Assembly (NCBI GenBank): GCA_964537995.1
Contig: CAZICW010000001.1
Span: 1-55,712 of the forward strand
Length of the DNA stretch: 55,712 nt
Direction: 5' to 3'
Source of the DNA: an uncultured Oscillospiraceae bacterium
GTDB taxonomy: Bacteria; Bacillota; Clostridia; UMGS1883
The notes below the pieces were generated by a model. The model was not told where the DNA came from, made no database searches, and was given only the letters and a program-made list of their open reading frames with translations. Positions 18,027-35,616 of the stretch are shown one piece after another (positions within the stretch are counted from its first letter, which is position 1; every line of letters starts with the position of its first letter). A program made the translations under genes and the position numbers.

Positions 18027-18062
18027 AAAAAAGCAGCCGGCATAAATGCCGGCTGTTTTTTA
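18027..18062. terminator. Bidirectional intrinsic terminator (ends the THUMP gene and the nine-gene operon)
   Basis: CAGCCGGC-ATAAAT-GCCGGCTG hairpin flanked by an A-run upstream and a T-run downstream. Confidence 0.8.
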
Positions 18063-18084: not shown

Positions 18085-19128
18085 TCAGCCTACCAGACCG
18101 GACTGCTCCATGTTCTCGACAAGTCGTTTTTGTACACAGAAGTACACAATGAGAAGCGGAACAAGGAATATCAGAATTGCGGCCTGTTTAACCGCGTCGA
18201 AAGCGAACGAGGATGCCGCCGGAGCGTCGAACCAAGTTTGCACCGCAGTCACTATGGTATCGGACTGGGTTGACGCGAAGCGCTGCGACAGCTTAACCGC
18301 TACGAACGGTCCGTCCGGATAGAAATATCCGGTATAGTAAGTGTCGCCGTAGTTCCATACAAACGAGAGAATGGAAACCGTCATAATTGTGGGAACGGCG
18401 TTGGGCAAAGCAATCTTGAAATATGTTTTGTAAAAGCCGCAGCCGTCGATGAGAGCTGCTTCTTCCAGTTCCTTGGGAAGGGTCAGGAAGAATTGGCGGA
18501 ACATGAATACGAACATACTCTGCTTCAGTCCAAAGCCGAGAAGCGCCAACAGATACAGCGTTATCGGTTTGTTTATCAAATCCACGGTGCTTCCCGTAAA
18601 CAGGGAGAACAGTCCGAGAATATCAAAATTCTTGAAACGCAGGTACTGAGAAATCAGGAGAGCCTGATCGGGTACGCAGAAGGTTACGATTACAAGCACA
18701 AAGATAAGTGTGCCGCCGGGGATTTTTATTCTGCCCAGAACATAACCTGCCATGGCGCTGACAAACACCTGTATCAAGGCTATGCTTGCCGCATACAGCA
18801 GCGAAAGCAGCATTACCGAGAAATTTCCGTAAACAAGCTTTATCGCCGCCTTAAAGCTGACAATCGAGAAGGTTTTCGGAACCCATACAACGTCGGGATT
18901 ACCCAGTTCCTCAACATCGTTGAAAACATTCGGGAACAGCTTAATTATCGGATAAAGAATCGTGAAGCACATACCGATAATCAAAGACGCCGCAAAAATT
19001 TTGAAAATTAGATTCTGGAAATATCTTGTTCTGTGAAGGGGATCGGTAATGGAATTGTCGTTCCATTTTTCCTTAAACCACGCGCCTATGCCATTACCTT
19101 TCGCCTTTTTCGCATTACTTTGTGCCAT
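18085..19128 (-). CDS. Carbohydrate ABC transporter permease (MalG-like TMD), second pair
   Basis: 347 aa with a GAAGGTGGTGA RBS. The EAA loop is 'EAALIDGCGFYKTYFKIALPNAVP'. It has an unusually long extracytoplasmic loop and C-terminal extension. Its start overlaps the upstream gene by 14 nt. Confidence 0.9.
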   Translation of the reverse strand: MAQSNAKKAKGNGIGAWFKEKWNDNSITDPLHRTRYFQNLIFKIFAASLIIGMCFTILYPIIKLFPNVFNDVEELGNPDVVWVPKTFSIVSFKAAIKLVYGNFSVMLLSLLYAASIALIQVFVSAMAGYVLGRIKIPGGTLIFVLVIVTFCVPDQALLISQYLRFKNFDILGLFSLFTGSTVDLINKPITLYLLALLGFGLKQSMFVFMFRQFFLTLPKELEEAALIDGCGFYKTYFKIALPNAVPTIMTVSILSFVWNYGDTYYTGYFYPDGPFVAVKLSQRFASTQSDTIVTAVQTWFDAPAASSFAFDAVKQAAILIFLVPLLIVYFCVQKRLVENMEQSGLVG

Positions 19129-20056
19129 AATCCAATTTCACCACCTTCGTAAGAATAAAGAGCAGCAGCAGCAGCGCAATAATAACATTGAGCAGGAAGC
19201 ATACCGACAGCGCGCTGCCTATGCCTATCTTATTGCTTGTAAACGCGAACGAGTAGATTTCCTGCGATATGGTTGACGCAAGGAACAGGTCGACCAGCGT
19301 ATACACAAACACGAATATTGTTATGTTTCCAACCATAGGGAAGGTTATCTTCCAGAAGGTTTCGTATGTTGTGCAGCCTTCAATCTTGGCAACCTCGTAA
19401 AGCGAGGGATTGATCGACTGGAGAGCCGCAAGATAGAGCAGCGTCTGCACACCCGCTTTGGAAACTATAGTGAAGATATCACTGATTATGCCAACTATGA
19501 AAGATATAACATTTTGAGGCAGGAAGCTGTTTGTTGTGAACAGGTTCATCAGGAAGCTTGATTCCTCCGTTGCCGTGGTTGTTACGGCTGTAAGGTCACC
19601 GCCTGTGGAAACGGCCGTCATGTCGGTTACAATCGACAGACCGAGAACTATGGGGAGGAAGAAAATTACTCTGACAACTCCGCGCCCCTTATATTTTGCG
19701 TTTACAAGCAACGCGCAGAAGAGGCTGAATACGACAATCAACGGAGTGTTGACAAGAACGCTCGAGTTTTCGTCGGAAAATACGCGGATAAACTGCTGTG
19801 ACTTTGTCGAAACCTCTGTGTTGAAGAGGTCAAAATAGTTGTCCATTCCGACAAATTCCATCTCCATACCGCCGTCATCGCCTACGCTTACTTCATTAAA
19901 GGAGTATATGACGGTGTTTACAAGCGGAATCATGAAGAACAGAAGGAAGCCGATTATCCACGGAATAAGGAAAACATAGCCGTTTATTTTTTGGGTGGTG
20001 GCATATGCAAGAGGCTTCCTTGCCTTCTTAGTCTTGGTTTGGGTTTCTGCTTTCAT
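19115..20056 (-). CDS. Sugar ABC transporter permease (MalF-like TMD), second pair
   Basis: 313 aa. The EAA loop is 'EVAKIEGCTTYETFWKITFPMV'. The ATG overlaps the upstream stop (TGATG). Confidence 0.9.
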   Translation of the reverse strand: MKAETQTKTKKARKPLAYATTQKINGYVFLIPWIIGFLLFFMIPLVNTVIYSFNEVSVGDDGGMEMEFVGMDNYFDLFNTEVSTKSQQFIRVFSDENSSVLVNTPLIVVFSLFCALLVNAKYKGRGVVRVIFFLPIVLGLSIVTDMTAVSTGGDLTAVTTTATEESSFLMNLFTTNSFLPQNVISFIVGIISDIFTIVSKAGVQTLLYLAALQSINPSLYEVAKIEGCTTYETFWKITFPMVGNITIFVFVYTLVDLFLASTISQEIYSFAFTSNKIGIGSALSVCFLLNVIIALLLLLFILTKVVKLDYGTK

Positions 20057-22893
20057 CAGTTATCCCCTCCTTCTATCACAAGATAGTCCTCCGCGGCAAT
20101 TACGCCGTATTCGGTTTCTACCGGTGTGGTGTTATAGTTTGTGATTACTTTTACGCCCGTATCATAGGTCGTTTCATATACCTTATTGTCCAGAACGCTG
20201 TGGGACTTAATCTTCGTTGTGCCGATCTTCTCAAATTCTGCCTTTATTGTTGCGTACTGCTCTTTGATTTGGTCGGCGAAGATGCTGTATTCGGTTGCGA
20301 AAAGCTCGTTATAGTTCGCTTCCTTGAGTCTGTCAACGCTCTTATAGGTTATGGTATATTTGGGGAAGGAGGCAAGCTCCAATGCTTGAAGCGTGAAGTA
20401 AGCATTATCCGACGAAGAGGTGTTCACGCTGAGAGTTGTATAATCCGTAAGACCGTTAAGCACGAGCTGACGGAAGGGAACATTTTCGCGGATAAGACCG
20501 TAGTCGCTGCTTTCGCGAGAAATGTCGGCGCTTACCGCGGCATACTTAACTCTGTTCGCATTGGGATTGTAAAGGACAAGGCTTCTGCCGTCGGCAAGAG
20601 TTTCCAGAGCTGACTGAATCATAATCTCGCTCTCGTAGGGATTCCATTCATCACTGTCGCTGAGGTTCTCATAGACAAGATTTCCGAGATCTCCTATTGC
20701 CAGATTCTTATAGGTCTTGGCGCTCTCGCTGAATTTGTTAACAACATTCAGCAAATATTTGGGCGCCACCGTGTAAAAGCCCTTGCCGGTTTCATCAAAT
20801 TCGCCTGTGGGAATATTGTATTTATAGGTTTCAAGCGGGTCGCCGTTAAAGGTTATAAGCGCGTGCTTTTTCGGAGCAAAAGCGGCGGTGTCCTTATAAA
20901 CCTCGCTGGGATTAACCGAAAGGTAGAGCGAATCCCACTTGTCGCTGAGAAGCTTATCAAGAGCGGATTTGCTGCCGTTCTTGCCGACAAGCTTGGCGGA
21001 GGTGTTTATTTTATTGTAAATTCCTCCGTTAAACACGCCGCTGTAGCTTACAACCGTATCGACGTCCTTGAGATCGTCATATATTTCCGCAAGCTCGTCA
21101 TAGGTTGTCATGGAAACGGTTTTATCGTAGGGGATACCCATTACGCGGGCGTCAATCGTAAGCGCGCCTATTACATCAAGGAACATCTTCGGAGTTTCCT
21201 CAAAGGATTCCGTGAGATTGTATTCGGAGATGAGGTAATCTCTGTAGGACTGGCTCATTGTGTAATAATTCGCGTTGTCCACATAGAGTTTATAGCGCAC
21301 GCGGCAATCAAAGTCGTAGGGATTGGTTGTGGCGGTGAACTTCGCGTCACTGTCGCTGTAGGGGCCGAATACCTTAACATTGCTCACCTGCATAATATCG
21401 AAGGATGGATAAACCTTGTTGTAGGGAGCGTCGGCGTCGCTGTTTTCATCGGCGGCAAGTCTTACATTGATTGTCGCCGTCGTGTCGCCGCTTTCAATTA
21501 TGCCCATGAATCCGTTGTAAGCCGGCGTTTCCTCCGCTTCTTCCTCCGCAGTTTCGCCTTCATCGATAATTTCGGCGGCTTCTTCCTCTTCGGATTCTTC
21601 CGCTTGCGCAGTTTCATCCGAAGCTTCTTCGGCTTCCTCCGCTTCCGCGGCTTCTTCCTCCGCTTCTTCGGCTGTTTCTTCGCCTTCTTCAGCGGCTTCC
21701 GCTTCTTCCTCTTCTTCCTCTTCGGCAGACTTGAAGCTGCGGTCAGCCATACTGCCCATACCGAATACGGGCATTGTTATATTTTCGCGGAACTCGCTCT
21801 GATTATAAACCGTGTCGTAATAGGTGTTGTCGTATACGGCTCGGGAATACTCGGTGTAGCCGCTGTCATAGCTGTTGATGTCGAACAGCGCGCCGCTGCC
21901 GTCGGGAACGAATATGAAACCGTCGTCGGTTTCTTCCGCAAGCACCATTCCGAAATTCGGAAGCACTTCGATAGCCTTAATTGTAAAGTCCGCGTTTCCG
22001 GTCACGATTTCCGAAGTCGGTACGTTCACAACCAGATCGCCGTTATCAAGCGTAAAATCGGCGAAAACCGTGAAATCGGCGTCTTCGGTCACCGTAAAGG
22101 TAAAGCCGTATTCGGCACTGTCCTCACGAATAAGGTCTACATTGTATCCCACATTTTTGCTGAGGGAAATAAGTATGTTCGTCGCCGATACGGGCGGTGT
22201 GCCGGAATATTTGTTGTAATAATACTCGCCGTCGTCGGAGATTGCGTAAATCATGCCGAGAGCCTTGTCATACTGCTCCTTGGTTTCTTCGTCAATCTTT
22301 CCCGATTTAAGCAGCTCGTCAACCTTATCGACAAAGTATTCGTTATACTTTTCGGCGCTGACCTGCTTGGGCATATATTCCTCAAGGTTTGTGGAGGCTT
22401 CGCTTGTAAAGTGCATTTCCGCGCGGAAGCCGTTTTCGATTCTGGCAAGGCTGTAGCCGCGCGCCTCATCCTCTTCTTCATCTTCATCGCCGCTGTCGGC
22501 AACGCAGTAATCGTAGCCGCTCCATGTTGTCTCGGCTCCGGCGCTGTCGATGTAAGTTATTGACAAGGGGCCGGAAGCGGTGGAATCGGATTCTCCGGTG
22601 CTGCTCTGCGACTTCCAGTAGGTTTGAGTCGCCGTATCAACCACGGTTATATCCAAAGTCGAAGGATTTACATAAAGCTCCTTCCCGCCGTTTTCGGCAA
22701 CAAGCAAATCTTTGTCCGAAGTGACGTCAATTGCGCTTTTTTCGGCCGCCAATGCGCTCACTTCAACGACGGGACGGTCGGACGCCTTCATTCCAAGCTG
22801 AGGCAGCCATGATATGAAAGCAACGACCAAGCATACAACCACAATAACACACAGGATTTTCATCAGGCTAAGCTTGCTTAAAAAATTTTTCAT
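20056..22893 (-). CDS. Large N-terminally membrane-anchored exoprotein of unknown function (possibly the family annotated as DUF5696) with an internal poly-Glu/Ala tract
   Basis: 945 aa counted from ATG 22893, which has an AAAAGGTGG RBS. The ORF-track GTG is at 22905. The N-terminal anchor is 'ILCVIVVVCLVVAFISW'. I can see no catalytic motif. The DUF5696 guess rests only on size, topology and the Yip1/ABC neighbourhood. Confidence 0.75.
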   Translation of the reverse strand: MKNFLSKLSLMKILCVIVVVCLVVAFISWLPQLGMKASDRPVVEVSALAAEKSAIDVTSDKDLLVAENGGKELYVNPSTLDITVVDTATQTYWKSQSSTGESDSTASGPLSITYIDSAGAETTWSGYDYCVADSGDEDEEEDEARGYSLARIENGFRAEMHFTSEASTNLEEYMPKQVSAEKYNEYFVDKVDELLKSGKIDEETKEQYDKALGMIYAISDDGEYYYNKYSGTPPVSATNILISLSKNVGYNVDLIREDSAEYGFTFTVTEDADFTVFADFTLDNGDLVVNVPTSEIVTGNADFTIKAIEVLPNFGMVLAEETDDGFIFVPDGSGALFDINSYDSGYTEYSRAVYDNTYYDTVYNQSEFRENITMPVFGMGSMADRSFKSAEEEEEEEAEAAEEGEETAEEAEEEAAEAEEAEEASDETAQAEESEEEEAAEIIDEGETAEEEAEETPAYNGFMGIIESGDTTATINVRLAADENSDADAPYNKVYPSFDIMQVSNVKVFGPYSDSDAKFTATTNPYDFDCRVRYKLYVDNANYYTMSQSYRDYLISEYNLTESFEETPKMFLDVIGALTIDARVMGIPYDKTVSMTTYDELAEIYDDLKDVDTVVSYSGVFNGGIYNKINTSAKLVGKNGSKSALDKLLSDKWDSLYLSVNPSEVYKDTAAFAPKKHALITFNGDPLETYKYNIPTGEFDETGKGFYTVAPKYLLNVVNKFSESAKTYKNLAIGDLGNLVYENLSDSDEWNPYESEIMIQSALETLADGRSLVLYNPNANRVKYAAVSADISRESSDYGLIRENVPFRQLVLNGLTDYTTLSVNTSSSDNAYFTLQALELASFPKYTITYKSVDRLKEANYNELFATEYSIFADQIKEQYATIKAEFEKIGTTKIKSHSVLDNKVYETTYDTGVKVITNYNTTPVETEYGVIAAEDYLVIEGGDN
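21526..21729 (-). repeat. Low-complexity acidic (Glu/Ala-rich) coding tract inside the exoprotein
   Basis: About 68 codons read 'AEEEEEEEAEAAEEGEETAEEAEEEAAEAEEAEEASDETAQAEESEEEEAAEIIDEGETAEEEAEET'. The plus strand shows reiterated CTTCTTCCTC/GGCTTC units. Confidence 0.85.
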
Positions 22894-22898
22894 ATCAA

Positions 22899-23528
22899 TC
22901 ACCACCTTTTCATAAATTCGGTTCCGAAGGTATAAATGAAGGAAATAACCTTCTGGATAAGCGTAATATAGAGAATCGCAAGGAATATGATTATAATCGC
23001 CGCAATAAAGGTTGCTATAATCATAACTACGTTTGTGGCGGCTGTGTATTCATGCGCCACGCACAGACCGCAGAATACGAGGAAGGCAAAGTATACCATT
23101 CCGATGCCCGACACTGCCGTAAGGATTATTGATTCGTCAAGCGTAACAACATTGCTGAAAATAACAACGATTAAATCCAGCACCAGCTTCGGGAAAAGCG
23201 AGTATGTAACAACAACGAAAATGTCCTTGAATTTGCCGCTGCCTTCAAAAATTGCCGTTACGCTCCAGTTGCTGATGCAAAACAGAAGGAAGGGGAAAAT
23301 TCCGAAAATGAAGGTTGTCAGGCTGTTCATCGCGAACTGCGGGTTGTTGTTCATAATAAAGCCGGTATACTGATACTTGACAATTGCCAAAAGTCCGTAA
23401 AGAATAAGAATTATCGCTCCGAGAGTTACATTTTCTTTACCTCTGAATCGCACCTCATAGAAGCCATCAAACGGGTGGGTAATGACGTGCATCAGATATT
23501 TAAAATCTTCCAATAACTTTTTCATCAT
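22899..23528 (-). CDS. Yip1-family polytopic membrane protein
   Basis: About 209 aa starting at ATG 23528 or 23525 after a GAGGTGA RBS. There are five hydrophobic helices. The N-terminus 'YLMHVITHPFDGFYEVRF' resembles bacterial Yip1-domain proteins. Confidence 0.75.
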   Translation of the reverse strand: MMKKLLEDFKYLMHVITHPFDGFYEVRFRGKENVTLGAIILILYGLLAIVKYQYTGFIMNNNPQFAMNSLTTFIFGIFPFLLFCISNWSVTAIFEGSGKFKDIFVVVTYSLFPKLVLDLIVVIFSNVVTLDESIILTAVSGIGMVYFAFLVFCGLCVAHEYTAATNVVMIIATFIAAIIIIFLAILYITLIQKVISFIYTFGTEFMKRW

Positions 23529-23538
23529 TCTCACCTCA

Positions 23539-24999
23539 TTATAATTCTTCTAATTTCTTCTGCTGCCTTGAATACTTGACCTCTGTCCAGATTACCCATA
23601 CGACAAAGGCAAGGAATACAATTCCGAATATGGCGAAATACTTTTGAATTATAAGGTTGCGATATCCGGCAAACGCCTTGGAGTAATAGGTTTTATCATT
23701 GCCGAGCTTGAAGTAGTACATCGCCTTTTCATATTCGTCCTGCATATAATAGTTCTTGCCGATTGAAACATAGGCGTGGTCATAGTTGGCATTCATCTGA
23801 ACAACCTTTTCATTCAATTCGGCAGCGGCATTGAAGTCACCGTTGAAGTATTTTTCCTCAGCCGTAAGCACGAGTGTGCCAAAGTCGGTCGGAGTAAATA
23901 CAAACGCGCTCGCAAGCTTGCTGTCGCCGATGATAAGATCGTTGCCGTTCCAGCAGATTGACGTAGGAGTGTTGAAGGTTCCCTTGATGTCGCCCTCTCC
24001 GCCGAACACCGTCAGAAGGTTTCCGTCAAAATTATACAGGAAAACTCTGTTGCTCGAGGTATCGAGAAGGGCATATACGCCGTAATCGGAAACCGCTATG
24101 TCGGTAAAGGTACTCTTTGAGGTGTCACCCGTTGCCATCGGCAAATCACCGAGCTGTTCGCTGTAGCCGTATTTACGAAGAACATTTTCGCCCTTGGCGT
24201 TGAAACGGAAAGCCATTTCCTCAGAGGCCGTATCGGTTGTTACGGCATATACGAAGCCGTCGGAGTCGGTCTGTACGTTTACAAACGCGGGAGCGTAGGT
24301 TTTGCTCATTTTTGCCTTTTGCTCATCGGAGGCTATTGATTTCCAAAAATAATCAATGAAGCTTACCGTGGGCGAGTTTACGCCGAAGTAACGCGAGAAG
24401 CTACCGTCCTTGTTAAGCTCGATTATACCCTCGGTGCTGCTCTTTACGACAACGAAGATACGTCCGGCATTGTCCACCGCCAGCTTTGACGGAACAAAAT
24501 CGGTTGAGCCGACCATGTTGTCAGGCTTGTCGATCTGCATTTCCATAGCGAATGTTTCGGGATTGAGCAAGAAAATTCTCTTGTTTCCCGTGTCGGCTAT
24601 ATAAAGGTAATCGTCGTTGGCGTAAACTCCCTCGGGAGCGTTGAGAATTGCCTGCTTGTTGTCGCTGTCAACGACAATTTTGCCGTCGGCGTCACGAATG
24701 ATTTTGATTTCGCGAACAAGATTGTAATCCTTGTCAAGAACAAATACCTCGTTTGCAACGGAGTCCGCAATGTAAATGCGGTCGCCGTAAACATAAACAT
24801 CGTCAACGCTTTTTATAACCGCGCCGTCAACGCTGTCGGTTGAAAGAACCGTGGAAAGCTCGAAAGCGTTAAGACTCTCGTTGGCGCTTCCCCAATAATC
24901 GTAAATATAGCTGCTGTCGTCCGTATGCTCGGCATAAGCGGTTACAAATGTGAAGCATAAAAGGACAAGCACGCAAAGGCTCAATATTCTTTTTGTCAT
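23539..24999 (-). CDS. Secreted NHL-repeat beta-propeller protein with C-terminal TPR-like segment and C-terminal TM anchor
   Basis: 486 aa counted from ATG 24999, which has an AAGGGGGG RBS. The signal peptide is 'ILSLCVLVLLCFTFVTAYA'. NHL-like blades include 'IYIADSVANEVFVLD', 'LYIADTGNKRIFLLN', 'VDNAGRIFVV' and 'LDTSSNRVFLYNFDG'. A TPR-like 'YEKAMYYFKLGND' segment is present. The TM helix is encoded at 23587-23640. Confidence 0.8.
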   Translation of the reverse strand: MTKRILSLCVLVLLCFTFVTAYAEHTDDSSYIYDYWGSANESLNAFELSTVLSTDSVDGAVIKSVDDVYVYGDRIYIADSVANEVFVLDKDYNLVREIKIIRDADGKIVVDSDNKQAILNAPEGVYANDDYLYIADTGNKRIFLLNPETFAMEMQIDKPDNMVGSTDFVPSKLAVDNAGRIFVVVKSSTEGIIELNKDGSFSRYFGVNSPTVSFIDYFWKSIASDEQKAKMSKTYAPAFVNVQTDSDGFVYAVTTDTASEEMAFRFNAKGENVLRKYGYSEQLGDLPMATGDTSKSTFTDIAVSDYGVYALLDTSSNRVFLYNFDGNLLTVFGGEGDIKGTFNTPTSICWNGNDLIIGDSKLASAFVFTPTDFGTLVLTAEEKYFNGDFNAAAELNEKVVQMNANYDHAYVSIGKNYYMQDEYEKAMYYFKLGNDKTYYSKAFAGYRNLIIQKYFAIFGIVFLAFVVWVIWTEVKYSRQQKKLEEL

Positions 25000-25012
25000 C
25001 ACTTGCACCCCC

Positions 25013-25903
25013 TTATTCCTTCATGCCCGAGCTTGCCATCGTTTCGATAACGTTGCTCTGTGAGAACACGAATACCGCGATGGGTACAACGAGCATAATC
25101 AAGTTTACCGCCGACGATACGCCGGTTCTTACGATACCGGAGCTTACAATCTGGCTGAGCGCGTATGTTACGGGCTTTAGCTTTTCGGTATAAATGAAGT
25201 TTCCGCCCGAAGCTCCCCAAAGGGACTGGAATGACATGATTATCGCGGTTATCCATGCCGGCTTGCTCAGCGGCATTACAACCTTCCAGTAAATCCCAAA
25301 TTCGCTCGCGCCGTCAATTCTTGCGGATTCAAGAAGCGACATCGGTATGTGTACCATGTTGTTTTTCATGAGGTAAAGGCACAGCGTCGAGCCTATCGCC
25401 GGAAGAACAACCGCCCAGTAGGTATCGACAAGACCGATCTTGCTCATGATGATATAGTTGGGAATAGCCGTTACGGTACTGTTGAACATCAGGGAGTATG
25501 TAATGAGACTGCTCATCGCCCTGCTGCCCGGGAAGGTGTATTTGGCAAGCGGATACGCCGCCATACTGCCGAGGACAACCGTTCCCGCCGTACCGAGGAA
25601 TGTTATGAAGAATGTGTTAAAAATGTAGCGGCTGAAGGGAACCCAGCTGTTGCCGACAATCTGGAACAAATCACGGAAGTTGTCGAGCGTCGGGTTTACA
25701 ACATAAAACTTCGGTGGGAAAAGGAAAACCTCATTCAAGGGCTTAAAGGCGTTCACAATAATCAACCAAAGGGGAAGAATTGAGAACAGACCGAAAGCAC
25801 CAAGGAAAACCGTAAGCGCGATGTCCACACCGAGAGAACGGTTGCGGCGAGTAATTTTGCGGTGGTCAAGATAGCCTTTAAACTTTTTAATGGGATTAAA
25901 CAT
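25013..25903 (-). CDS. Carbohydrate ABC transporter permease (MalG-like TMD), first pair
   Basis: 296 aa. The EAA loop is 'ESARIDGASEFGIYWKVVMPLSKP'. There is a 3-nt gap to the upstream gene. Confidence 0.9.
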   Translation of the reverse strand: MFNPIKKFKGYLDHRKITRRNRSLGVDIALTVFLGAFGLFSILPLWLIIVNAFKPLNEVFLFPPKFYVVNPTLDNFRDLFQIVGNSWVPFSRYIFNTFFITFLGTAGTVVLGSMAAYPLAKYTFPGSRAMSSLITYSLMFNSTVTAIPNYIIMSKIGLVDTYWAVVLPAIGSTLCLYLMKNNMVHIPMSLLESARIDGASEFGIYWKVVMPLSKPAWITAIIMSFQSLWGASGGNFIYTEKLKPVTYALSQIVSSGIVRTGVSSAVNLIMLVVPIAVFVFSQSNVIETMASSGMKE

Positions 25904-25906
25904 AAA

Positions 25907-26845
25907 TTACTCACCAACCCTTCTCAGAATCTTCTGAACCAAGATATTGGCAAACAGCATTATGAAGAACAATACCATGGCTATCGCCGAAGCATAGCCC
26001 ATTTCATAACGGGTGTTGCCGTAATCGTTCAGGTGGGTTATAATGGTATGACCGGCATAGTCAACCGACGGGAAGCCCGCAAGCTCCGTAGAGATTGAGC
26101 CGACGGACAGGGAGCTGGTTATCTGCATAACCGCACCGAACATCAGCTGAGGCTTCATTGACGGAAGGGTTATGTACCAAAGCTCCTGCCAACGGTTTTT
26201 TATTCCGTCGATTGCGCCCGCCTCATACATGGTCTTGTCAACCGACTGAAGACCCGCAATGAAGGACAGGAACGATACGCCGAGGCTCAGCCATAGCTGA
26301 ACTATAATCAGTATCGGCATAATGTATTCCGATGTTTCAAACCACAGAATCGGACTGTCTATTATGCCCCAGTTGAGCAGCCAAGCGTTTATGTAACCGT
26401 ACATATCCGAGCTGAAGAGCAGCTTCCAGATTGTGTATGCGTTACCTGAAATCGAGGGTGCGTAGAACACCAGCGTCAGGAGTGCGCGCGGAATCGGAGG
26501 AAGCTCGTTGATGAGCCATGCGAAAACGAAGCACATCAGGTAGCTCACAGGACCGGTTACGATTGCGAAGAACATTGTGTTCTTCAGGGCTATAAGGAAT
26601 ACGTCATCGAAAACGATAAGGTTTACATAGTTGCTGAGTCCCACAAAATCAGGCATTTGCAGCATATTGAAGTTTGTGAAGCTCATGACCATCGAAACCA
26701 GAACGGGAATAGCCGTGAAGCAGATGAATATGAGCGCAAAAGGAAGAATCATAAGATATTTTGCCCTGTGAAGCTTCCAAGCGTTCGACCATTTCATTGA
26801 TTCAAGCTTTCTTTTCGGCTTTTTTACAGCTGCTTCCTTACTCAA
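25907..26845 (-). CDS. Sugar ABC transporter permease (MalF-like TMD), first pair
   Basis: 312 aa. The EAA loop is 'EAGAIDGIKNRWQELWYITLPSMKP'. The TTG start, with an AAGGGAG RBS 9 nt upstream, overlaps the upstream TGA (TTGA). Confidence 0.9.
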   Translation of the reverse strand: MSKEAAVKKPKRKLESMKWSNAWKLHRAKYLMILPFALIFICFTAIPVLVSMVMSFTNFNMLQMPDFVGLSNYVNLIVFDDVFLIALKNTMFFAIVTGPVSYLMCFVFAWLINELPPIPRALLTLVFYAPSISGNAYTIWKLLFSSDMYGYINAWLLNWGIIDSPILWFETSEYIMPILIIVQLWLSLGVSFLSFIAGLQSVDKTMYEAGAIDGIKNRWQELWYITLPSMKPQLMFGAVMQITSSLSVGSISTELAGFPSVDYAGHTIITHLNDYGNTRYEMGYASAIAMVLFFIMLFANILVQKILRRVGE

Positions 26846-29826
26846 TTTTCGTCACTCCCTTCTTCGTGATATTCTTCGTCCTCTATGTATGAAAGGTCGA
26901 ATTCTTTTCTCTTTGTCGTAAGCTCTTCATTGATTTCCTTGACGTTTACATAAAGAGCCTCACGCGGATTCTGACCGTCGGTAACAACGTTGTCGTAAGC
27001 GTAGGTTATCATACGGCTTGTCATGTAATAACCGGGAACGTCGGGAACGCCCTTGGTATTCTCAAACTGTTCAAGCAGCATATCGACCTGAGACGCCGAC
27101 CACGGAAGCTGACGAAGAACATTCTTGTTCGCCGTCGCGTAACGTGCGCCGCTGCCGAGAGCAGCCTCGATTGTCTGGGCATACTCAACCTGCGTGTCGT
27201 CGGAAAGCCACCACTTCAGGAAGCTCCAGCCTTCGTCCTTGCGCTTGCTGCTGTTGAGGATTACGGTGTGAACAGAGGTCGCAACCGCGGTATTGTCGAT
27301 GCTGCCGTCCTCGCTTTCGTATCCGGGAAGGGGAGCAAAGCTCCAAAGACCTTTAATTTCGGGAGCAAATACCTCAAGGGTATTATAGGTTGTGTAGTCC
27401 GCGATACCTACAGGAATTTCGCCTGTTCTGAAGCGGTTGGAGAAGTCAACCGATACGGGCAGCTTATAAGCCGTGAAGAATTCGCAAAGCTTCTTAAACG
27501 CCTGCATGGCCTCTTCCTCGCGCAAGCCGGACTCTATGCCGTAGTCGATGTCAACCTCATCTTCGCCGAGTGACGGAAGTCCGTATGTGTCCTTAATGTC
27601 ATCGCGGCCGAGATACATATCTCCGCCGTACTGGTAAACCAGCGTGCTGAGCATTGCGGTCGAGGGCATATAGAAATCATAGTTGTTTATATGGAGAACG
27701 GAAATCATTTCTCCGACTTCCTCCCACGTTGTGGGAATTTCAAGACCAAGCTCGTCAAGAATATCTTCGCGGTAGAAGAGTACGCTGAAATTCTCGGTTT
27801 CGGGAAGTCCGTAAATTCCGCCGTGGTAGGTGACCGCCTCAAGGGCGCTCGGATAGAAGCGATCGGCCTGCTCTCTGAAATCGTCGAACTGAGAAAGATC
27901 CGTAATGGCACCACGGGAAGCAAAGTCAATTACCGTGGATTGAGCCATGTTCAAAACAACGTCGGGTCCGTTGCCCGCAAGTGTCGCGGGAAGAATAACG
28001 CTTGACGGAATGAGCTGAAGGTTTACCTTCGTGTCATTCAGCGGAGCATAGCTGTTATCAATCTGGTTCTTGATGATGTTCGCCTGATCACGACCCGTCT
28101 GAACCCATACCTTCAGAGCGTCCTTGCTTTCGCCCTCATCGTCGGAAATTTTAGTTTCATCAACGAAGAATGTCGCGAAGAAACGAATGGCCTCATGGTA
28201 TGCGCCGACAAGGAAGTTCGGCTCCGCATTCTTGAGCTTTGCGTCGGGAGCGCTGAGCGTAAGGCTGTCAAGCTCAAGGGGCATTTCCGCGATGGAAAGC
28301 ATCCATGTGGAAAGAGCGGAAACGTTGCTCTTGAAATCGGAAATTTCATTTACAACTCTGTCAGGATCTTCGGCAAAGCGCTCAAGCTGATTGGCGACTT
28401 TTTCGATATTGGTTGTGTTAGAACCCTTTTCGCCCGTTATTTCAACCATCATGTCAACGATGTCGTTGAGAACGGCCGCCTGCTGAGTTACGGTTTTCTT
28501 AAAGCCGGTTATCTTATCGGCAATTTCATAGTCTATGTACTTATCGGGAACCGTACCCGTAATCTGAACTACCCTGAGATAGAGATTGTTCAGAGACTGA
28601 ACGCTGGAATTGATTGCCGTATACGCTTCGGCGAAGTCGCCGAGGCAAACGTCAAGTGCTATTGTGTTTTCGCCTTTGTCGAGATAGAGCAGCAAAGGCT
28701 CGTTTTCATTATCCACAAGCACATAATTTTGGAAGGAACCGGAGAAATCAAACCCGATTTTCTTCGCTTCCTCAAACGGAAGCTCGCCGTTTATCATAAG
28801 GCGGCGGTAGCTCTTTACACCGCGGTTCGTAGCCTGACGTCCGCGGAAGGAAAGCTGATACAGCCCCGCCTCGGGAACATTGACCGTCCATTCAACCTTG
28901 TCGCCGGGAGTCTGCCAGCTTGTGCCGCCGAGAGTGTTCAGCAGCACGTGCCAATGGTGGTAAGGCACCGTATTGGAGCTTGAATAGTCGCTCGACATAC
29001 CGATTGAGGACGATGATTTGAGGATCTTCGTCACAACCTCGTCCGTTCTTTCCGCCTGACCGGTAAGATTTTCGCCGGAATATACGGAAGCTCCGCTGTG
29101 TTCGGCGAGATACTCCTCATAGCTTACCGCCTCATCAGCCTTGCACAGCTCAATTCCGCTGATTTTAACGGCTTCTTTGGATTCGATGAGCGATATTGTA
29201 TGCTCGCCCTCATCAAAATAAAACGCGTACGGATCAAGCATACGATAATTTTCGTCGGAATAGAAGAACTCATGCTCAATCGGCTTTCCGCTGTCGTCGG
29301 TGAAAACCTCCTTGGCCGTGGGACGAATTTCGCTTCCGTTCTTCTCTTCGATTTCTCCCTCGTTGTTAAGCCATGTCCTGGCGAACGAAATCTGCTTCAT
29401 TCCGTCGAACAGCGTTTTGTCGTCAATTTTCATGCTGCGCTCCGGTGTGGCGTTCGTGCCGTCTACGGAATAGTACTTAAATTTTAAATTATAGAAGCCC
29501 GCTTCGGCGACATTGAATGTCCACGTTATGTCGCCTCTTTCCGAAAGCGTCACTCCGTCGCTGTCGGTTAAAACGTCCATATCCTCGGTGGTATAATTTG
29601 TCAGATCAACCTCAACAGTTGATTTCGCGAAATTGCTCCCGCCGTCAACCCAGCCGTTGTCATCGAGGTAATCTTGGTAGTCTTCATCAACATATTCGTC
29701 GGAAACTCCAAGATTCGCCACGGTGTCCTTCGATCCGGGAAGAACAAACGCAAGAACAATCAGCAATAATATGACCGCAATTATAACGCCGACCACAATC
29801 AGGCGTTTTTTAGTCTTTGCCTCCAT
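26842..29826 (-). CDS. Giant TM-anchored extracellular solute-binding protein: two CBM-like modules followed by a family-1 SBP domain
   Basis: 994 aa counted from ATG 29826, which has a GGAGGGA RBS. The anchor is 'LIVVGVIIAVILLLIVLAFVL' with no lipobox Cys. The duplicated motifs are 'GDITWTFNVAEAGFYNLKFKY' and 'GDKVEWTVNVPEAGLYQLSFRG'. The C-terminal half has SBP hallmarks 'GPDVVLNMAQSTVIDFASRGAITDL' and 'YGLPETENFSVLFYREDILDELGLEIPTTWEE'. Confidence 0.85.
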   Translation of the reverse strand: MEAKTKKRLIVVGVIIAVILLLIVLAFVLPGSKDTVANLGVSDEYVDEDYQDYLDDNGWVDGGSNFAKSTVEVDLTNYTTEDMDVLTDSDGVTLSERGDITWTFNVAEAGFYNLKFKYYSVDGTNATPERSMKIDDKTLFDGMKQISFARTWLNNEGEIEEKNGSEIRPTAKEVFTDDSGKPIEHEFFYSDENYRMLDPYAFYFDEGEHTISLIESKEAVKISGIELCKADEAVSYEEYLAEHSGASVYSGENLTGQAERTDEVVTKILKSSSSIGMSSDYSSSNTVPYHHWHVLLNTLGGTSWQTPGDKVEWTVNVPEAGLYQLSFRGRQATNRGVKSYRRLMINGELPFEEAKKIGFDFSGSFQNYVLVDNENEPLLLYLDKGENTIALDVCLGDFAEAYTAINSSVQSLNNLYLRVVQITGTVPDKYIDYEIADKITGFKKTVTQQAAVLNDIVDMMVEITGEKGSNTTNIEKVANQLERFAEDPDRVVNEISDFKSNVSALSTWMLSIAEMPLELDSLTLSAPDAKLKNAEPNFLVGAYHEAIRFFATFFVDETKISDDEGESKDALKVWVQTGRDQANIIKNQIDNSYAPLNDTKVNLQLIPSSVILPATLAGNGPDVVLNMAQSTVIDFASRGAITDLSQFDDFREQADRFYPSALEAVTYHGGIYGLPETENFSVLFYREDILDELGLEIPTTWEEVGEMISVLHINNYDFYMPSTAMLSTLVYQYGGDMYLGRDDIKDTYGLPSLGEDEVDIDYGIESGLREEEAMQAFKKLCEFFTAYKLPVSVDFSNRFRTGEIPVGIADYTTYNTLEVFAPEIKGLWSFAPLPGYESEDGSIDNTAVATSVHTVILNSSKRKDEGWSFLKWWLSDDTQVEYAQTIEAALGSGARYATANKNVLRQLPWSASQVDMLLEQFENTKGVPDVPGYYMTSRMITYAYDNVVTDGQNPREALYVNVKEINEELTTKRKEFDLSYIEDEEYHEEGSDEN

Positions 29827-29847
29827 TTGCTTATTCCCTCCGTTCAA

Positions 29848-31950
29848 TTATTTTATTTCAACTTCAATTGTTGCACTTGTCTTGTTTCCGGCGAAATCCT
29901 TAACATAGATTTCAACGGGATAGGTGCCGGCTTCCGTAACGTCAAGCTCGGAAACATCGGCGGAAACATTGCTCGACAAATCTATGCCGTTCGCGTCCTG
30001 AGCCGATTCGACAAATTTGCCCGCCCAATCTACGGTTGACGTGTCAACGTTAAGGCTCAGGCTGTCGTACTCTTCCTTCAGCGTAAGTGTCGGCGGAACC
30101 GTATTTTCCTTGTCGTATACATAGACCTCAAACGTGGAGGTTTTGCTGTTTCCGGCATAATCCTTTATGGTTATCGAAATTCCGTCGGCATATTTTCCGG
30201 CGGCTTCAAAATCAACGCCGGAGCAATCAACGCTTATCATGTCGTCAAGCCATTCATATTCTTCTTCGCCTTCCTCGGCGGTATCCTCGTTAAGCTGCTT
30301 TCTGAGCTGAAGCTTTCCGTCCTCCATGCGAAGCTCGTACTCGCCGTCAACGTTATCGTCGGCGTATATAAGCTCATCCCACTTGATTTTGGAGGAGTCG
30401 GTTCCGAGGGCAAACACGAACGAATTGGTTTCGGCCTTGCTCACGGACGGGCTTACGTCATCGACAACCTCATCCTTGTTGAGAGCCTTGGACATCGTGT
30501 CAAGCTTATCGTATATCGAGCTCTTGTTTGCTTCAATGGCTATTGAATACTTGGGCATTCCGCTGACGCCGTAGATAGACGATCCCGCGATTCCCGCCCA
30601 TGTCCAGAAGCAGCCGATGGCCTCGGAATAATCGTTTACGGGAGTATTGCCCATCTCCTGGAATATGGCAAGATTCGCGTCGCCGATTTCGGAATGGAAG
30701 ATGTCAACGCCGAACGCGAGAGCTTCCGCCGCAGCCTGATTCTGCCTGTATTCCTCAATGCTGTCAACATGAGCGTACGCCTTGTAAAATTCGCTCTTAT
30801 AGGTCGAGTAAGCCTCAAGCGCGCGAAGACTTCTTTCGGAGTCGATGCCCTTCATCAGACCGACGCTGTCAGCCGCGGCGCTGAGAATCCAGTATTGGTC
30901 GGAATCCGCCGGAAGACTGTCGGGACGCGGGAAGGGGATTATGCCCATGCTTTCTCCTCTTTCGGCGAGGGATGCGCCCGCGTTATCCATTTGCCAGCGC
31001 GCCACGTTGCTGAACACGGTTTCGCCGTTGCAAAACGCCGTTGTCGCGGTCAGCCAGCCGGAATTGTTCGACGTGCTGCTTGCCGTCGAGCAGGAGATAA
31101 GTCCCGAATTTATCATTGTATCCAGATATTCTATGGCTTTCTTGGCGGCGTCGGTATCGAAGGTCATGTTCGAGCCGTCATATACCGAAGCGCCGTTCGA
31201 GGCGATCGCCATAAGAGCCGTATAGGAATAGTTTGTGTTAAAGGGAACTATGTTGTTCGAGGAATTGACAGGCCCTTTCTTGCCGTTATAATACGCCTGC
31301 AGCTTTGTAAGATAATCCTCAAACTTGTTCCACGTCCACTCTCCGTTAAGGTACAGATCGGAGGGATAGACGGTTTTGCCGTTTTCCTTCAGGGAAGGAA
31401 CCGCTTCTATGTAATCAATGTTGTAGCAAATGGGCCACGTATTTACAAAGAGCAAGTCTCTGTTCATAAGGTAGTAGCTCCCGAAGGTTTTGCCTATCGG
31501 AATCCATGACTTATCCGCGTCGTCCTCTCCGAAGAACACCTCATCTACATACGGATCGAGCTTTTGGAGAATGTTCTGCGACAGGATATTGCCCTGAACA
31601 CCGTTCCAGAGAACCGCCAGATCGCAATAAGGATCTCCGGCAAGCACCGTCTGGAGCAAAAGCTGCTGAAGGTCGCTGGAATACTGAAGCCATGTAATCT
31701 TCGTGCCGAGCTTTTCCTCAACAGTGGCAAGCGCAGTTTCGGCGGCGCGAATTTTATCCGGATCCATTGAAGCCTCGCCGGTAATCTCATCAACCCACGT
31801 CGGATCGTCCTCCTGCTGAGCGTGAGTTCCGATTACTATCGTCATAAGCTCATCTTCTGTCGCGTTACTGGCCGGGCAGCCGGTCAACGCAAGGACGGCG
31901 AGCAAAAGACCGGCTGACGCGGCGACAACAGTTTTGATTTTTAACCGCAT
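29848..31950 (-). CDS. Lipoprotein extracellular solute-binding protein with C-terminal tandem Ig-like (DUF5011-type) domains
   Basis: 700 aa counted from ATG 31950, which has an AAAGGAAG RBS. The lipobox is 'LALTGC'. A family-1 SBP core is present. The C-terminal ~200 aa carry repeated 'AG.Y...I.[IV]KD.AGN..[TS]..[FI]EV' Ig-like signatures. Confidence 0.85.
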   Translation of the reverse strand: MRLKIKTVVAASAGLLLAVLALTGCPASNATEDELMTIVIGTHAQQEDDPTWVDEITGEASMDPDKIRAAETALATVEEKLGTKITWLQYSSDLQQLLLQTVLAGDPYCDLAVLWNGVQGNILSQNILQKLDPYVDEVFFGEDDADKSWIPIGKTFGSYYLMNRDLLFVNTWPICYNIDYIEAVPSLKENGKTVYPSDLYLNGEWTWNKFEDYLTKLQAYYNGKKGPVNSSNNIVPFNTNYSYTALMAIASNGASVYDGSNMTFDTDAAKKAIEYLDTMINSGLISCSTASSTSNNSGWLTATTAFCNGETVFSNVARWQMDNAGASLAERGESMGIIPFPRPDSLPADSDQYWILSAAADSVGLMKGIDSERSLRALEAYSTYKSEFYKAYAHVDSIEEYRQNQAAAEALAFGVDIFHSEIGDANLAIFQEMGNTPVNDYSEAIGCFWTWAGIAGSSIYGVSGMPKYSIAIEANKSSIYDKLDTMSKALNKDEVVDDVSPSVSKAETNSFVFALGTDSSKIKWDELIYADDNVDGEYELRMEDGKLQLRKQLNEDTAEEGEEEYEWLDDMISVDCSGVDFEAAGKYADGISITIKDYAGNSKTSTFEVYVYDKENTVPPTLTLKEEYDSLSLNVDTSTVDWAGKFVESAQDANGIDLSSNVSADVSELDVTEAGTYPVEIYVKDFAGNKTSATIEVEIK

Positions 31951-32005
31951 TTTCACACTTCCTTTTTTTCATATTAGTGATTTTGCACATTTGCCGTATA
32001 TAGCC

Positions 32006-32034
32006 ATTATACACAAAAACTATAAAAATATCAA
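32006..32034 (-). promoter_or_regulatory. Sigma-A-type promoter of the nine-gene operon
   Basis: On the minus strand: TTGATA (32034-32029), 17-nt spacer, TATAAT (32011-32006). It sits about 55 nt upstream of ATG 31950 and downstream of the pheT terminator. Confidence 0.5.
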
Positions 32035-32085
32035 GCCCTTTTTATAGATTTTTTATAAAAATTTTTAATTTTTTGTGTCCAAATC

Positions 32086-32125
32086 AAAAACAGAGCAAAA
32101 ACTTCCCGTTTTATGCTCTGTTTTT
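32086..32125. terminator. Bidirectional intrinsic terminator after pheT
   Basis: CAGAGCAAAAAC...GTTTTATGCTCTG hairpin flanked by AAAAA (32086-32090) and TTTTT (32121-32125). Confidence 0.7.
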
Positions 32126-32186
32126 ATTGTGAATTTTTCACAAAAGTTGTTTTCGCGAAAATTTACCGTTCAAAATTTTCGCGAGC

Positions 32187-34565: not shown

Positions 34566-34596
34566 TATATATCATTCCTTTCTGCCGATTTTCGGA

Positions 34597-35616
34597 TTAA
34601 AACTGCTTCAGAAAACGCATATCGTTCTCAAAGAACAGCCGCAGGTCGTCGATGTTGTATCTTCTCATAACAATGCGTTCAAGCCCCAAGCCGAAAGCAA
34701 AGCCGCTGTAAATTTCGGGGTCGATTCCGCAGTTTGCCAAAACCTTGGGATGAACCATGCCGGAGCCGAGAATTTCAATCCAGCCCTCGCCCTTGCAAAC
34801 GCCGCAGCCCTTGCCGCCGCACACAAAGCAGGAAACGTCAACCTCCGCCGACGGCTCCGTAAACGGGAAATGGTGCGGGCGCAGACGGATTTTTGCGTCA
34901 TTGCCGTATAAAGCCTTAACGAACGCCTCAAGCGTACCCTTTAAATCCGCCATTGTTATGCCCTTATCGACAACAAGCCCCTCAATTTGGTGGAAAACCG
35001 GAGAATGCGTCGCGTCAACGGCATCGCTTCTGAAAACTCTTCCGGGGGAAATTATCCTTATCGGCGGCTTTGTACGCTCCATAACGCGTACCTGTACGGG
35101 GGAGGTTTGAGTGCGGAGCAGAATCTCATCGTTAATATAGAATGTATCCTGAGTGTCCCGCGCGGGGTGGTCGGCGGGAATATTCAGCGCCTCAAAATTG
35201 TAGTAATCCAGCTCCACATCGGGGCCTTCGGCGACCGTAAAACCCATGCCCGTGAAAATTGCCGTAACCTCGTCCAGCACCTGAGTGAGCGGGTGAAGTC
35301 TGCCCTCACGGCGGCGGCGGCCGGGAATTGTTACGTCAATAACCTCGTTTTTCAGCTTTTTCGCCTTTTCCTCGGCGGCAAGCTCCGCCTTTTTCTTTTC
35401 CGTTCCGTTCTCGATAAAGGTACGGATTTCGTTTGCGAGCTGACCGATTATCGGTCTTTCCTCCGAGCTGAGGGAGCCCATTGAGTGCAGCACTGCCGTA
35501 AGTTCGCCCTTCCTGCCGAGGAATCTGACCCTCGCCGCTTCAATCGCTTCGCCGCTGTCCGCCGCCGCAAGAGCTTCCTCGGCCGCGCGGCGGATTTTTT
35601 CAAGCTGTTCCTTCAT
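34597..35616 (-). CDS. pheS: Phenylalanine--tRNA ligase alpha subunit
   Basis: 339 aa. The class II motifs '[11 protein letters not shown]', '[18 protein letters not shown]' and '[11 protein letters not shown]' are present. Confidence 0.95.

Follow-up and report, generated by a model that had tools for sequence, protein, structure and literature searches.

A question raised by the locus described here is whether nine co-directional genes, encoding two permease pairs, two substrate-binding proteins (SBPs) and three envelope proteins, are parts of one system or chance neighbours, and what such a system would do. The locus lies in a 55,712-nt stretch of DNA, hereafter the window, from an uncultured Oscillospiraceae bacterium (assembly GCA_964537995.1, contig CAZICW010000001.1). 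In their order on the minus strand, the genes are L (lipoprotein SBP), S (giant SBP), f and g (first pair of transmembrane domains (TMDs) of an ATP-binding cassette (ABC) importer), N (NHL beta-propeller with TPR), Y (Yip1-family membrane protein), D (DUF5696 ectoprotein), and F and G (second TMD pair). The original prediction was of a Gram-positive surface machine that captures a polymer and feeds two importers, with N, Y and D as a processing or scaffolding trio, and this idea fits the evidence in general terms. The parts are of known kinds (a CUT1 importer, a glycoside hydrolase (GH) superfamily fold, Yip1 and NHL/TPR), and together they make up what is apparently a widespread, unstudied Gram-positive sugar-uptake module. 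We lean towards the interpretation that with this operon a spore-forming gut bacterium of the Clostridia captures glycans at the cell surface, processes them and imports them.

The first part of the question can be addressed by gene order. DUF5696 homologues with 50%, 40% and 24% identity to D are found in identical gene order with unrelated flanks, and the most distant homologues that we looked at (21–25% identity) also keep the order. There are at least 560 DUF5696 loci in species-representative genomes, among them those of Paenibacillus, Cohnella, Lachnospiraceae, Oscillospiraceae, Gracilibacillus, Lederbergia and one Treponema metagenome-assembled genome (MAG). The statement in the original prediction that such genes recur beside permeases is supported, and the very strongly conserved neighbourhoods are found in Paenibacillaceae, Lachnospiraceae, Oscillospiraceae and other Bacillota, as well as in the Treponema MAG. 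For counting, the open reading frames (ORFs) of 83 non-redundant loci were searched with the nine proteins of the window, with the loci that had room for the genes concerned as denominators. D is followed by F and G in 78 of 79 loci, the sole exception having frameshifted F and G, and N and Y stand directly ahead of D in 78/79. The genes S-f-g lie upstream in 65/69 loci and an L-type SBP gene adjoins in 46/51. Five loci have a minimal form, made up of D, F, G and an N-Y fusion; three of them have an ordinary SBP gene near by, and in the four with a complete upstream region there is no S-f-g. From these counts and the minimal form we derive an invariant core, N(Y)-D-F-G, which as a rule has an SBP gene close by and to which S-f-g is often added. 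It is to the second permease pair, F/G, that the trio belongs, and not equally to both: the coupling to two TMD pairs that had been proposed stands for F/G, but the first pair and the giant SBP are missing from the minimal variant. Several genomes carry two paralogous copies of the module.

These data bear directly on the plainest alternative, namely that two independent, ordinary sugar importers merely adjoin three unrelated surface proteins. The absence of S-f-g from some loci does make the two importers separable. However, the order is fixed in all but one locus down to 21% identity, the D and F genes overlap by stop and start codons, N and Y form one polypeptide in 23 loci and the minimal N-Y/D/F/G variant exists; contradicted in this way by the neighbourhoods, mere adjacency is scarcely credible.

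Some loci have further genes next to the module. In two minimal loci, L056 (1602-2912) and L078 (5485-6789), a Laminin_G_3 protein of ~435 aa precedes the N-Y fusion, and a right-handed beta-helix protein of ~640 aa follows G in L056 (10068-11978), L078 (13807-15729) and L081 (13757-15721); some minimal-form loci also have a beta-helix or GH31 protein. The Laminin_G_3 and beta-helix proteins may be lineage-specific replacements of the giant SBP or additional glycan-active parts. Locus L020, from the spirochaete MAG Treponema sp. Cf509_bin30, contains the full nine-gene L-S-f-g-N-Y-D-F-G module with a D of 36% identity, pointing either to horizontal transfer from Bacillota or to an error in binning.

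D had been described as an exoprotein of no recognisable family. It is in fact a member of Pfam DUF5696 (E 1e-124; 417.5 bits compared with a cut-off of 25.6), and its fold and profile identify it as a distant relative of GH129 and GH101. An AlphaFold2 model built with 50 homologues (pLDDT 84.3, pTM 0.82) predicts a beta-sandwich, a (beta/alpha)8 barrel and a C-terminal beta-sandwich, as in GH129 and GH101 enzymes. When this model was compared with the PDB using Foldseek, GH129 ranked first (DagB, 5opq, E 3.8e-25; NagBb, 5wzn, E 1.7e-18), with target-normalised TM-scores of 0.67-0.72 (5opq 0.67, 5wzn 0.71), and was followed by GH101, GH36, GH31 and GH13. In the PDB, the sole significant matches of the DUF5696 family profile were GH129 chains (E 4e-4 and 1.6e-3), and 136 DUF5696 sequences aligned by hhalign to the C-terminal half of GH129 with a probability of 88% and E 3e-6 over 273 columns. 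Motifs common to the two families are MPVFG~MPWFG, VPF~VPL and a C-terminal His. The GH129 side of this comparison consists of fragments that together span the catalytic half: the NagBb-like matches in the protein collection were all gene fragments of 105-317 aa (P0059-P0092), and searches for full-length GH129 returned nothing with a 68-aa ZgGH129 fragment and gene fragments only with a 184-aa NagBb fragment. Many of the NagBb-like fragments have both PF12905 (GH101) and PF18952 (DUF5696) as precomputed annotation; the Pfam DUF5696 model therefore cross-hits GH129. Taken together, the model and the profile comparisons place DUF5696 within the GH101/GH129 superfamily, as a very remote member. 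Because D is such a relative, the earlier statement that the operon has no glycoside hydrolase is probably wrong. A trio member thus comes near to a defined GH by its GH129/GH101-like fold, but it matches no Pfam GH model and shows no clear conservation of catalytic residues.

The DUF5696 family is large, with at least 3,820 clusters at 50% identity (E<=1e-30), and the literature that we searched contained no publication on DUF5696, PF18952 or IPR043751, in agreement with the earlier remark that no characterisation was known. Some members are much longer than D (P0148, P0175, P0207 and others, 1,400-2,267 aa); five of these were scanned and have no further Pfam domain. The extra sequence of P0148 is an Ala/Asp/Glu-rich insertion of ~900 aa directly before the C-terminal beta-sandwich.

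The two genes that precede D encode a propeller and a membrane protein. N has an NHL match above the Pfam cut-off (31.8 bits; cut-off 20), its sequence matches in the PDB are the NHL domain of TRIM71 (E 7e-11) and TPR proteins (E 5e-10), and a hydropathy scan indicates a signal peptide and a transmembrane (TM) segment at residues 457-475. Y scores 58 bits against PF04893 (cut-off 28.6) and its multi-pass hydropathy is consistent with five TM helices; no PDB relative of Y was found by sequence. In the 712-aa N-Y fusion of locus L004, window N corresponds to residues 9-463 (E 1e-53) and window Y to residues 506-711 (E 2e-35). A precedent for a Yip1 protein acting with an ABC transporter is YknW of Bacillus, which has been reported to modulate the assembly of YknXYZ (PMC4887032); Y scores 16.7 bits against the NCBIfam model of the YknW family (NF052650), below its cut-off of 110. 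In our literature searches we found nothing that joins Yip1, NHL and a permease in bacteria, and searches for Yip1 with Paenibacillus and SBPs, and for GHL families, likewise returned nothing relevant.

Both TMD pairs are, by their domain matches, type I ABC importer membrane domains. F is divergent and its BPD_transp_1 match falls under the Pfam cut-off. The EAA-G-P coupling motif is kept in all four TMD families (~80 orthologues each; 78 for f), and its E, G and P are each present in 100% of 80 orthologues of F; all four TMDs are consequently expected to dock an ATPase. The two pairs are 21-24% identical to each other and the best match of each TMD in other loci is its positional counterpart, which makes the pairs old, separately maintained paralogues. 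Among the nine operon proteins and the 20 flanking ORFs scanned (several other ORFs of the window were left unscanned), Pfam found no ABC_tran match, no glycoside hydrolase and no regulator. The original prediction was accurate to this extent, but it counted the absence of a nucleotide-binding subunit as a departure from a canonical CUT1 locus. A missing ATPase gene is ordinary for Firmicute sugar importers, which share an orphan MsmX/MsmK ATPase (PMC7658222), and a shared ATPase of this type, encoded elsewhere, would energise both permease pairs.

The two SBPs differ in architecture. The sole Pfam match of L is PF16403 (residues 652-700), with no direct Pfam SBP match. By hhalign, the L family aligns with the SBP_bac_8/SBP_bac_1 lipoproteins of ~460 aa that occupy the equivalent operon slot in Paenibacillaceae (probability 99.9%, E 4e-32), and L is the probable partner of F/G. 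S has an SBP_bac_1 domain (E 2e-22, residues 605-886), the nearest structure of which is the Listeria sugar SBP Lin1841 (5ysb, E 1e-29 for the profile against the PDB), and a single TM segment at residues 17-35 in a hydropathy scan. Its Pfam matches to CBM_35 (a carbohydrate-binding module, CBM) and Golvesin_C are weak, recurring in 9/34 and 19/34 orthologues, respectively; in profile searches of the PDB the repeated N-terminal module matches a module of CITase (5x7g, E 2e-7). On these matches S and L are classed as sugar-type SBPs, with the family-1 SBP character of CUT1 importers. L and S show no similarity to each other by hhalign (probability 5%), and the two SBPs are therefore not recent duplicates. 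Searches of Pfam, NCBIfam and the PDB together with hydropathy uphold the domain calls of the original prediction, from the lipoprotein with an Ig-like tail and the TM-anchored SBP to the four TMDs, the NHL/TPR and Yip1 proteins and the N-terminally anchored exoprotein.

From these parts we propose a mechanism in which a core unit, made up of L, the divergent pair F/G, membrane-anchored D and the N propeller/TPR held on Y, would be accompanied by an add-on unit of the giant CBM-bearing S with f/g that looks like another importer of a more conventional kind. Two type I ABC sugar importers would be formed, one by L with F/G and the other by S with f/g, and D and N-Y would be membrane-tethered accessory parts of the F/G importer, possibly in a physical complex with it. 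D would bind, and in the lineage of the window probably cleave, an alpha-linked and possibly galacto-configured glycan at the membrane surface. The N propeller/TPR could supply a further surface for binding or scaffolding, and Y may dock this unit to the permease in the membrane, as the part played by YknW in YknXYZ suggests. L and S would then take over the oligosaccharide, once captured and trimmed, for import. More tentatively, and as somewhat the less probable outcome, we advance the idea that DUF5696, NHL/TPR-Yip1 and F/G are obligate subunits of an undescribed class of ABC importer supercomplex, in which the GH129-like ectodomain processes polymer above the pore and Yip1 is the docking platform.

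A number of observations weigh against a system that captures, processes and imports glycans, and they are considered here together with the alternatives on which they bear. The search of 50 DUF5696 members against Pfam at E up to 1 returned PF18952 only and did not reach PF11308 or PF12905. No ATPase was found among the ORFs scanned in the 55.7 kb available. Other points concern the catalytic site. From the fragments, the two catalytic residues of NagBb were located in AYLDVF (Asp435, its D) and SSEE (Glu478, its first E). The candidate equivalent of the nucleophile in D is D735; its register with AYLDVF was set by hand, as hhalign is two residues off in this low-confidence stretch. Position 735 is Asp in 106 of the 136 DUF5696 sequences (78%), including the window protein; subclades with T, S, R, N or Q in its place retain the whole operon, and at least part of the family may therefore be non-catalytic. 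The NagBb acid/base Glu478 aligns to a gap or to Y775/N776 and has no conserved counterpart. Residue 775 may be Y, D, T, N, E or K, and it varies even among relatives that are 73-75% identical.

These features raise the possibility that the architecture is as proposed but that D is a catalytically dead glycosidase-like ectodomain, with the trio serving as a structural or assembly module for F/G or as a lectin-like polymer tether at the pore, while other secreted enzymes cleave. We hold this to be unlikely, albeit well worth weighing. It would account for the lack of any invariant carboxylate pair at the strand ends of the barrel (position 790, for example, is D in 52% and N in 34% of the family), for the loss of D735 from complete operons and for the lack of conservation in DUF5696 of the sugar- and metal-site motifs of NagBb, HLDGW and THDQ. 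The residues that the family does conserve (T596, Y617/G619/N622/G624, G640, S796, P806/F807 and N824) gather at the C-terminal strand ends of the predicted barrel, the usual ligand face, which favours our interpretation; the conserved residues of the pocket are polar rather than acidic, which favours a dead D. On the other hand, the window protein and most of the family retain D735, and D331, in the PDGSG motif of the N-terminal domain, is invariant or nearly so. The active enzyme DagB keeps only the equivalent of Asp435 and not the NagBb acid/base, and its catalytic machinery includes, among other carboxylates, the N-domain Asp202 from the second monomer of a dimer (PMC5698469); acid/base positions therefore move within the superfamily. 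We conclude that D likely has a conserved glycan-binding pocket, and catalysis by the window protein is plausible.

The genomic flanks speak to substrate and purpose. The flanks of the window module are housekeeping genes (pheST, an RlmL-like methyltransferase, MatE, DnaE, SpoIVA and F-ATPase). Housekeeping flanks without a regulator or GH, which are unusual for an inducible glycan-utilisation locus and count among the points against our interpretation, are also found in loci L001 and L088. In Paenibacillaceae, YesN-like/YesM-like two-component, AraC and GntR/LacI-type regulators recur beside the module, as do genes of GH35 (14 loci), GH10 (13) and GH30 (12), with GH27, GH43, GH36, GH31, GH42 and beta-helix proteins in other loci. 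The earlier statement that the locus has no regulator or GH thus describes the window, but many Paenibacillaceae loci have both. The flanking GH families vary by locus and the window flanks are housekeeping genes, and for these reasons no substrate call is justified, a further point against; the genomic context points to carbohydrates and names none.

The same flanks could be read as signs of a module that turns over, recycles or assembles the glycans of the cell's own envelope (wall polysaccharide or the glycans of S-layer or spore), in which case the target of D would be a self glycan. A near-consensus promoter, a core that is extremely conserved across lifestyles and the regulator-free housekeeping surroundings in the window (pheST, rlmL-like), L001 and L088 (spoIIP, S10 operon) accord with this, but the direction of transport by type I importer TMDs with SBPs is inward and not outward, paralogous copies exist in some genomes, YesMN/AraC regulators and plant-glycan GHs flank the Paenibacillaceae modules, and the flanks have no recurrent glycosyltransferase or wall-synthesis gene. 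We therefore consider a self-glycan role improbable. Less probable still, by a good deal, is a surface sensor that reports glycan to regulators and is not a bulk transporter. NHL propellers are sensor domains in some bacterial kinases, and two-component regulators adjoin the Paenibacillaceae modules; however, none of the nine proteins has an output or signalling domain, ATPase-coupling motifs are kept in all four TMDs, and the window and several other loci have no regulator. Glycan capture, processing and import is the interpretation with which we continue.

The gene layout has the features of a single operon. Each coordinate of the nine minus-strand ORFs, which run from 31956/31950 to 18085, was verified, as were the overlaps, promoter and terminator of the original prediction. 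S and f (P2 and P3) overlap by stop and start codons in TTGA (26842-26845), the stop of D (P7) and the start of F (P8) have one base in common (TGATG, 20054-20058), and F and G (P9) overlap by 14 nt (19115-19128); the other junctions have gaps of 0-21 nt that vary with the start codon chosen. The pheT gene ends upstream of the operon, at 32187. Promoter-like matches inside the operon (22, compared with 17.6+/-4.5 in shuffles) and terminator-like matches (17, compared with 18.3+/-4.4) are not enriched. Tight junctions, boundary signals and internal signals at shuffle level support the single transcription unit proposed earlier, as far as sequence features can. The coordinates of the features are given in Table 1.

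Table 1. Features of the nine-gene module and its borders, by position in the window.
Feature	Positions	Strand	Remarks
pheT terminator, hairpin and U-run	32085-32126		-19.4 kcal/mol, z -5.9; operon promoter downstream of hairpin
Sigma-A-like promoter candidate, TTGATA-17-TATAAT	32006..32034	-	11/12 matches; near consensus
L, lipoprotein SBP with C-terminal Bact_surface_Ig-like domain	29848..31950	-	700 aa from ATG 31950; lipobox LTGC
S, N-terminally TM-anchored giant SBP	26842..29847	-	994-1001 aa; two CBM35-like beta-sandwich modules, helical linker, family-1 SBP domain
f, MalF/UgpA-like TMD, first pair	25907..26845	-	312 aa; BPD_transp_1 and UgpA/PotB-type NCBIfam matches
g, MalG/UgpE-like TMD, first pair	25013..25903	-	296 aa; BPD_transp_1 E 5e-11; UgpE and GlcU matches
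N, secreted NHL beta-propeller and TPR protein with C-terminal TM anchor	23539..25008	-	486-489 aa
Y, Yip1-family multi-pass membrane protein	22899..23534	-	209-211 aa; PF04893 E 1.4e-15
D, N-terminally TM-anchored DUF5696 ectoprotein, predicted GH129/GH101-like fold	20056..22893	-	945 aa; PF18952
PDGSG motif, near-invariant, N-terminal beta-sandwich of D	21892..21906	-	D331 Asp in 134/136
Glu/Ala-rich disordered insert in D, residues 391-455	21529..21723	-	pLDDT <50; lineage-specific
D735 codon, AIGDLG, end of predicted barrel strand beta-4	20689..20691	-	candidate equivalent of nucleophile NagBb Asp435 / DagB Asp486
F, divergent MalF/UgpA-like TMD, second pair	19115..20056	-	313 aa; UgpA NCBIfam E 2e-12
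G, MalG/UgpE-like TMD, second pair	18085..19128	-	347 aa; BPD_transp_1 E 3e-13
Bidirectional intrinsic terminator, operon end	18028-18061	both	15-bp stem, T-runs on both strands

Other features of the window were recorded alongside the operon. The G+C content of the cluster (0.46-0.51) is the same as that of the window, and we rejected a composition anomaly caused by horizontal transfer as an explanation. A 12/12 sigma-70 consensus (TTGACA-16-TATAAT, 31265-31292, plus strand) lies antisense within the L gene and is either a chance match or an antisense promoter. Opposite the D gene is an antisense ORF of 566 aa (20863-22563, plus strand), together with an AT skew of -0.20 (20001-22000). As the Glu/Ala-rich insert of D (GAA/GCA codons) and the purine-rich coding strand explain both the ORF and the skew, this ORF is not a gene. 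Farther away, a 764-aa protein with four CHB_HEX_C_1/Fn3_assoc repeats (53316-55610, minus strand; E 1e-47) is probably a surface protein unrelated to the operon. The presence of SpoIVA (10412-11884, plus strand; E 2e-117) identifies the source organism as an endospore former. The nearest D-bearing loci are from Oscillospiraceae and Clostridia gut MAGs. In the gut Clostridia MAGs of L088 and the window, the module adjoins core housekeeping operons with no regulator near: the L088 module (262-21087) sits between spoIIP and the S10 ribosomal operon, and that of the window adjoins pheST (32187-35616).

With these results, DUF5696 gains a GH129/GH101-like fold, fixed partners (a Yip1-anchored NHL/TPR propeller and a dedicated permease pair) and a role, open to testing, in the uptake of glycans by Bacillota of the gut and of plant biomass. 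If its parts do form one machine, they would represent a new Gram-positive way of coupling surface glycan processing to import and would assign a function to bacterial Yip1 proteins. D could then found a glycoside hydrolase family of its own, or be a pseudoenzyme that derives from a GH and serves as a transporter subunit.

Comparison with known systems places the module among, but apart from, several of them. Like the CUT1 importers (TC 3.A.1.1) of Firmicutes that share MsmX/MsmK, for example AraNPQ, GanSPQ and MdxEFG of B. subtilis (PMC7658222, PMC5730181), it combines MalF/MalG-like pairs with EAA loops and sugar SBPs of family 1, and its operon lacks an ATPase gene. Unlike them, it has two TMD pairs and two SBPs per operon, one of the SBPs being ~1000 aa long and TM-anchored with CBM35-like modules, and it has NHL/TPR, Yip1 and DUF5696 genes between the pairs, conserved with the second pair. 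The YknWXYZ system also encodes a bacterial multi-pass Yip1 protein with an ABC transporter, and YknW is needed for YknYZ (PMC4887032); however, YknYZ is a MacB-type exporter with YknX as its partner, whereas the Yip1 protein of the module is coupled or fused to an extracellular NHL/TPR propeller. The overall fold predicted for D is that of GH129 (the alpha-N-acetylgalactosaminidase NagBb, 5wzn, and the 3,6-anhydro-D-galactosidase DagB/ZGAL_3152, 5opq) and of the GH101 endo-alpha-GalNAc-ases (Foldseek E 4e-25 to 1e-11). D is only ~11% identical to them, does not keep the acid/base, sugar or metal ligands of NagBb and differs from these enzymes in its N-terminal TM anchor, its large insertions and its obligate linkage with ABC permease genes in operons.

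In Gram-positive polysaccharide utilisation loci (gpPULs), a transporter, a polysaccharide-degrading carbohydrate-active enzyme (CAZyme) and a regulator are co-located. The module resembles these in having a transporter beside a putative glycan-active protein and, in Paenibacillaceae, regulators and GHs alongside, but the copy in the window has no regulator or classified CAZyme (only the GH-like DUF5696 protein), and the conserved unit is the transporter with the trio and not an enzyme set. An analogy, and no more than that, is offered by the SLC3/SLC7 amino-acid transporters, in which the GH13-like heavy chains 4F2hc and rBAT partner SLC7: there too an N-terminally anchored, single-pass, glycosidase-like (beta/alpha)8 ectodomain is paired with a multi-pass transporter, although SLC3/SLC7 is eukaryotic, of the GH13 lineage and of another transporter superfamily. 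Should the module prove to be a supercomplex, it would be the Gram-positive counterpart, assembled from different parts, of the enzyme-binder-transporter coupling in the Sus-like systems of Bacteroidetes.

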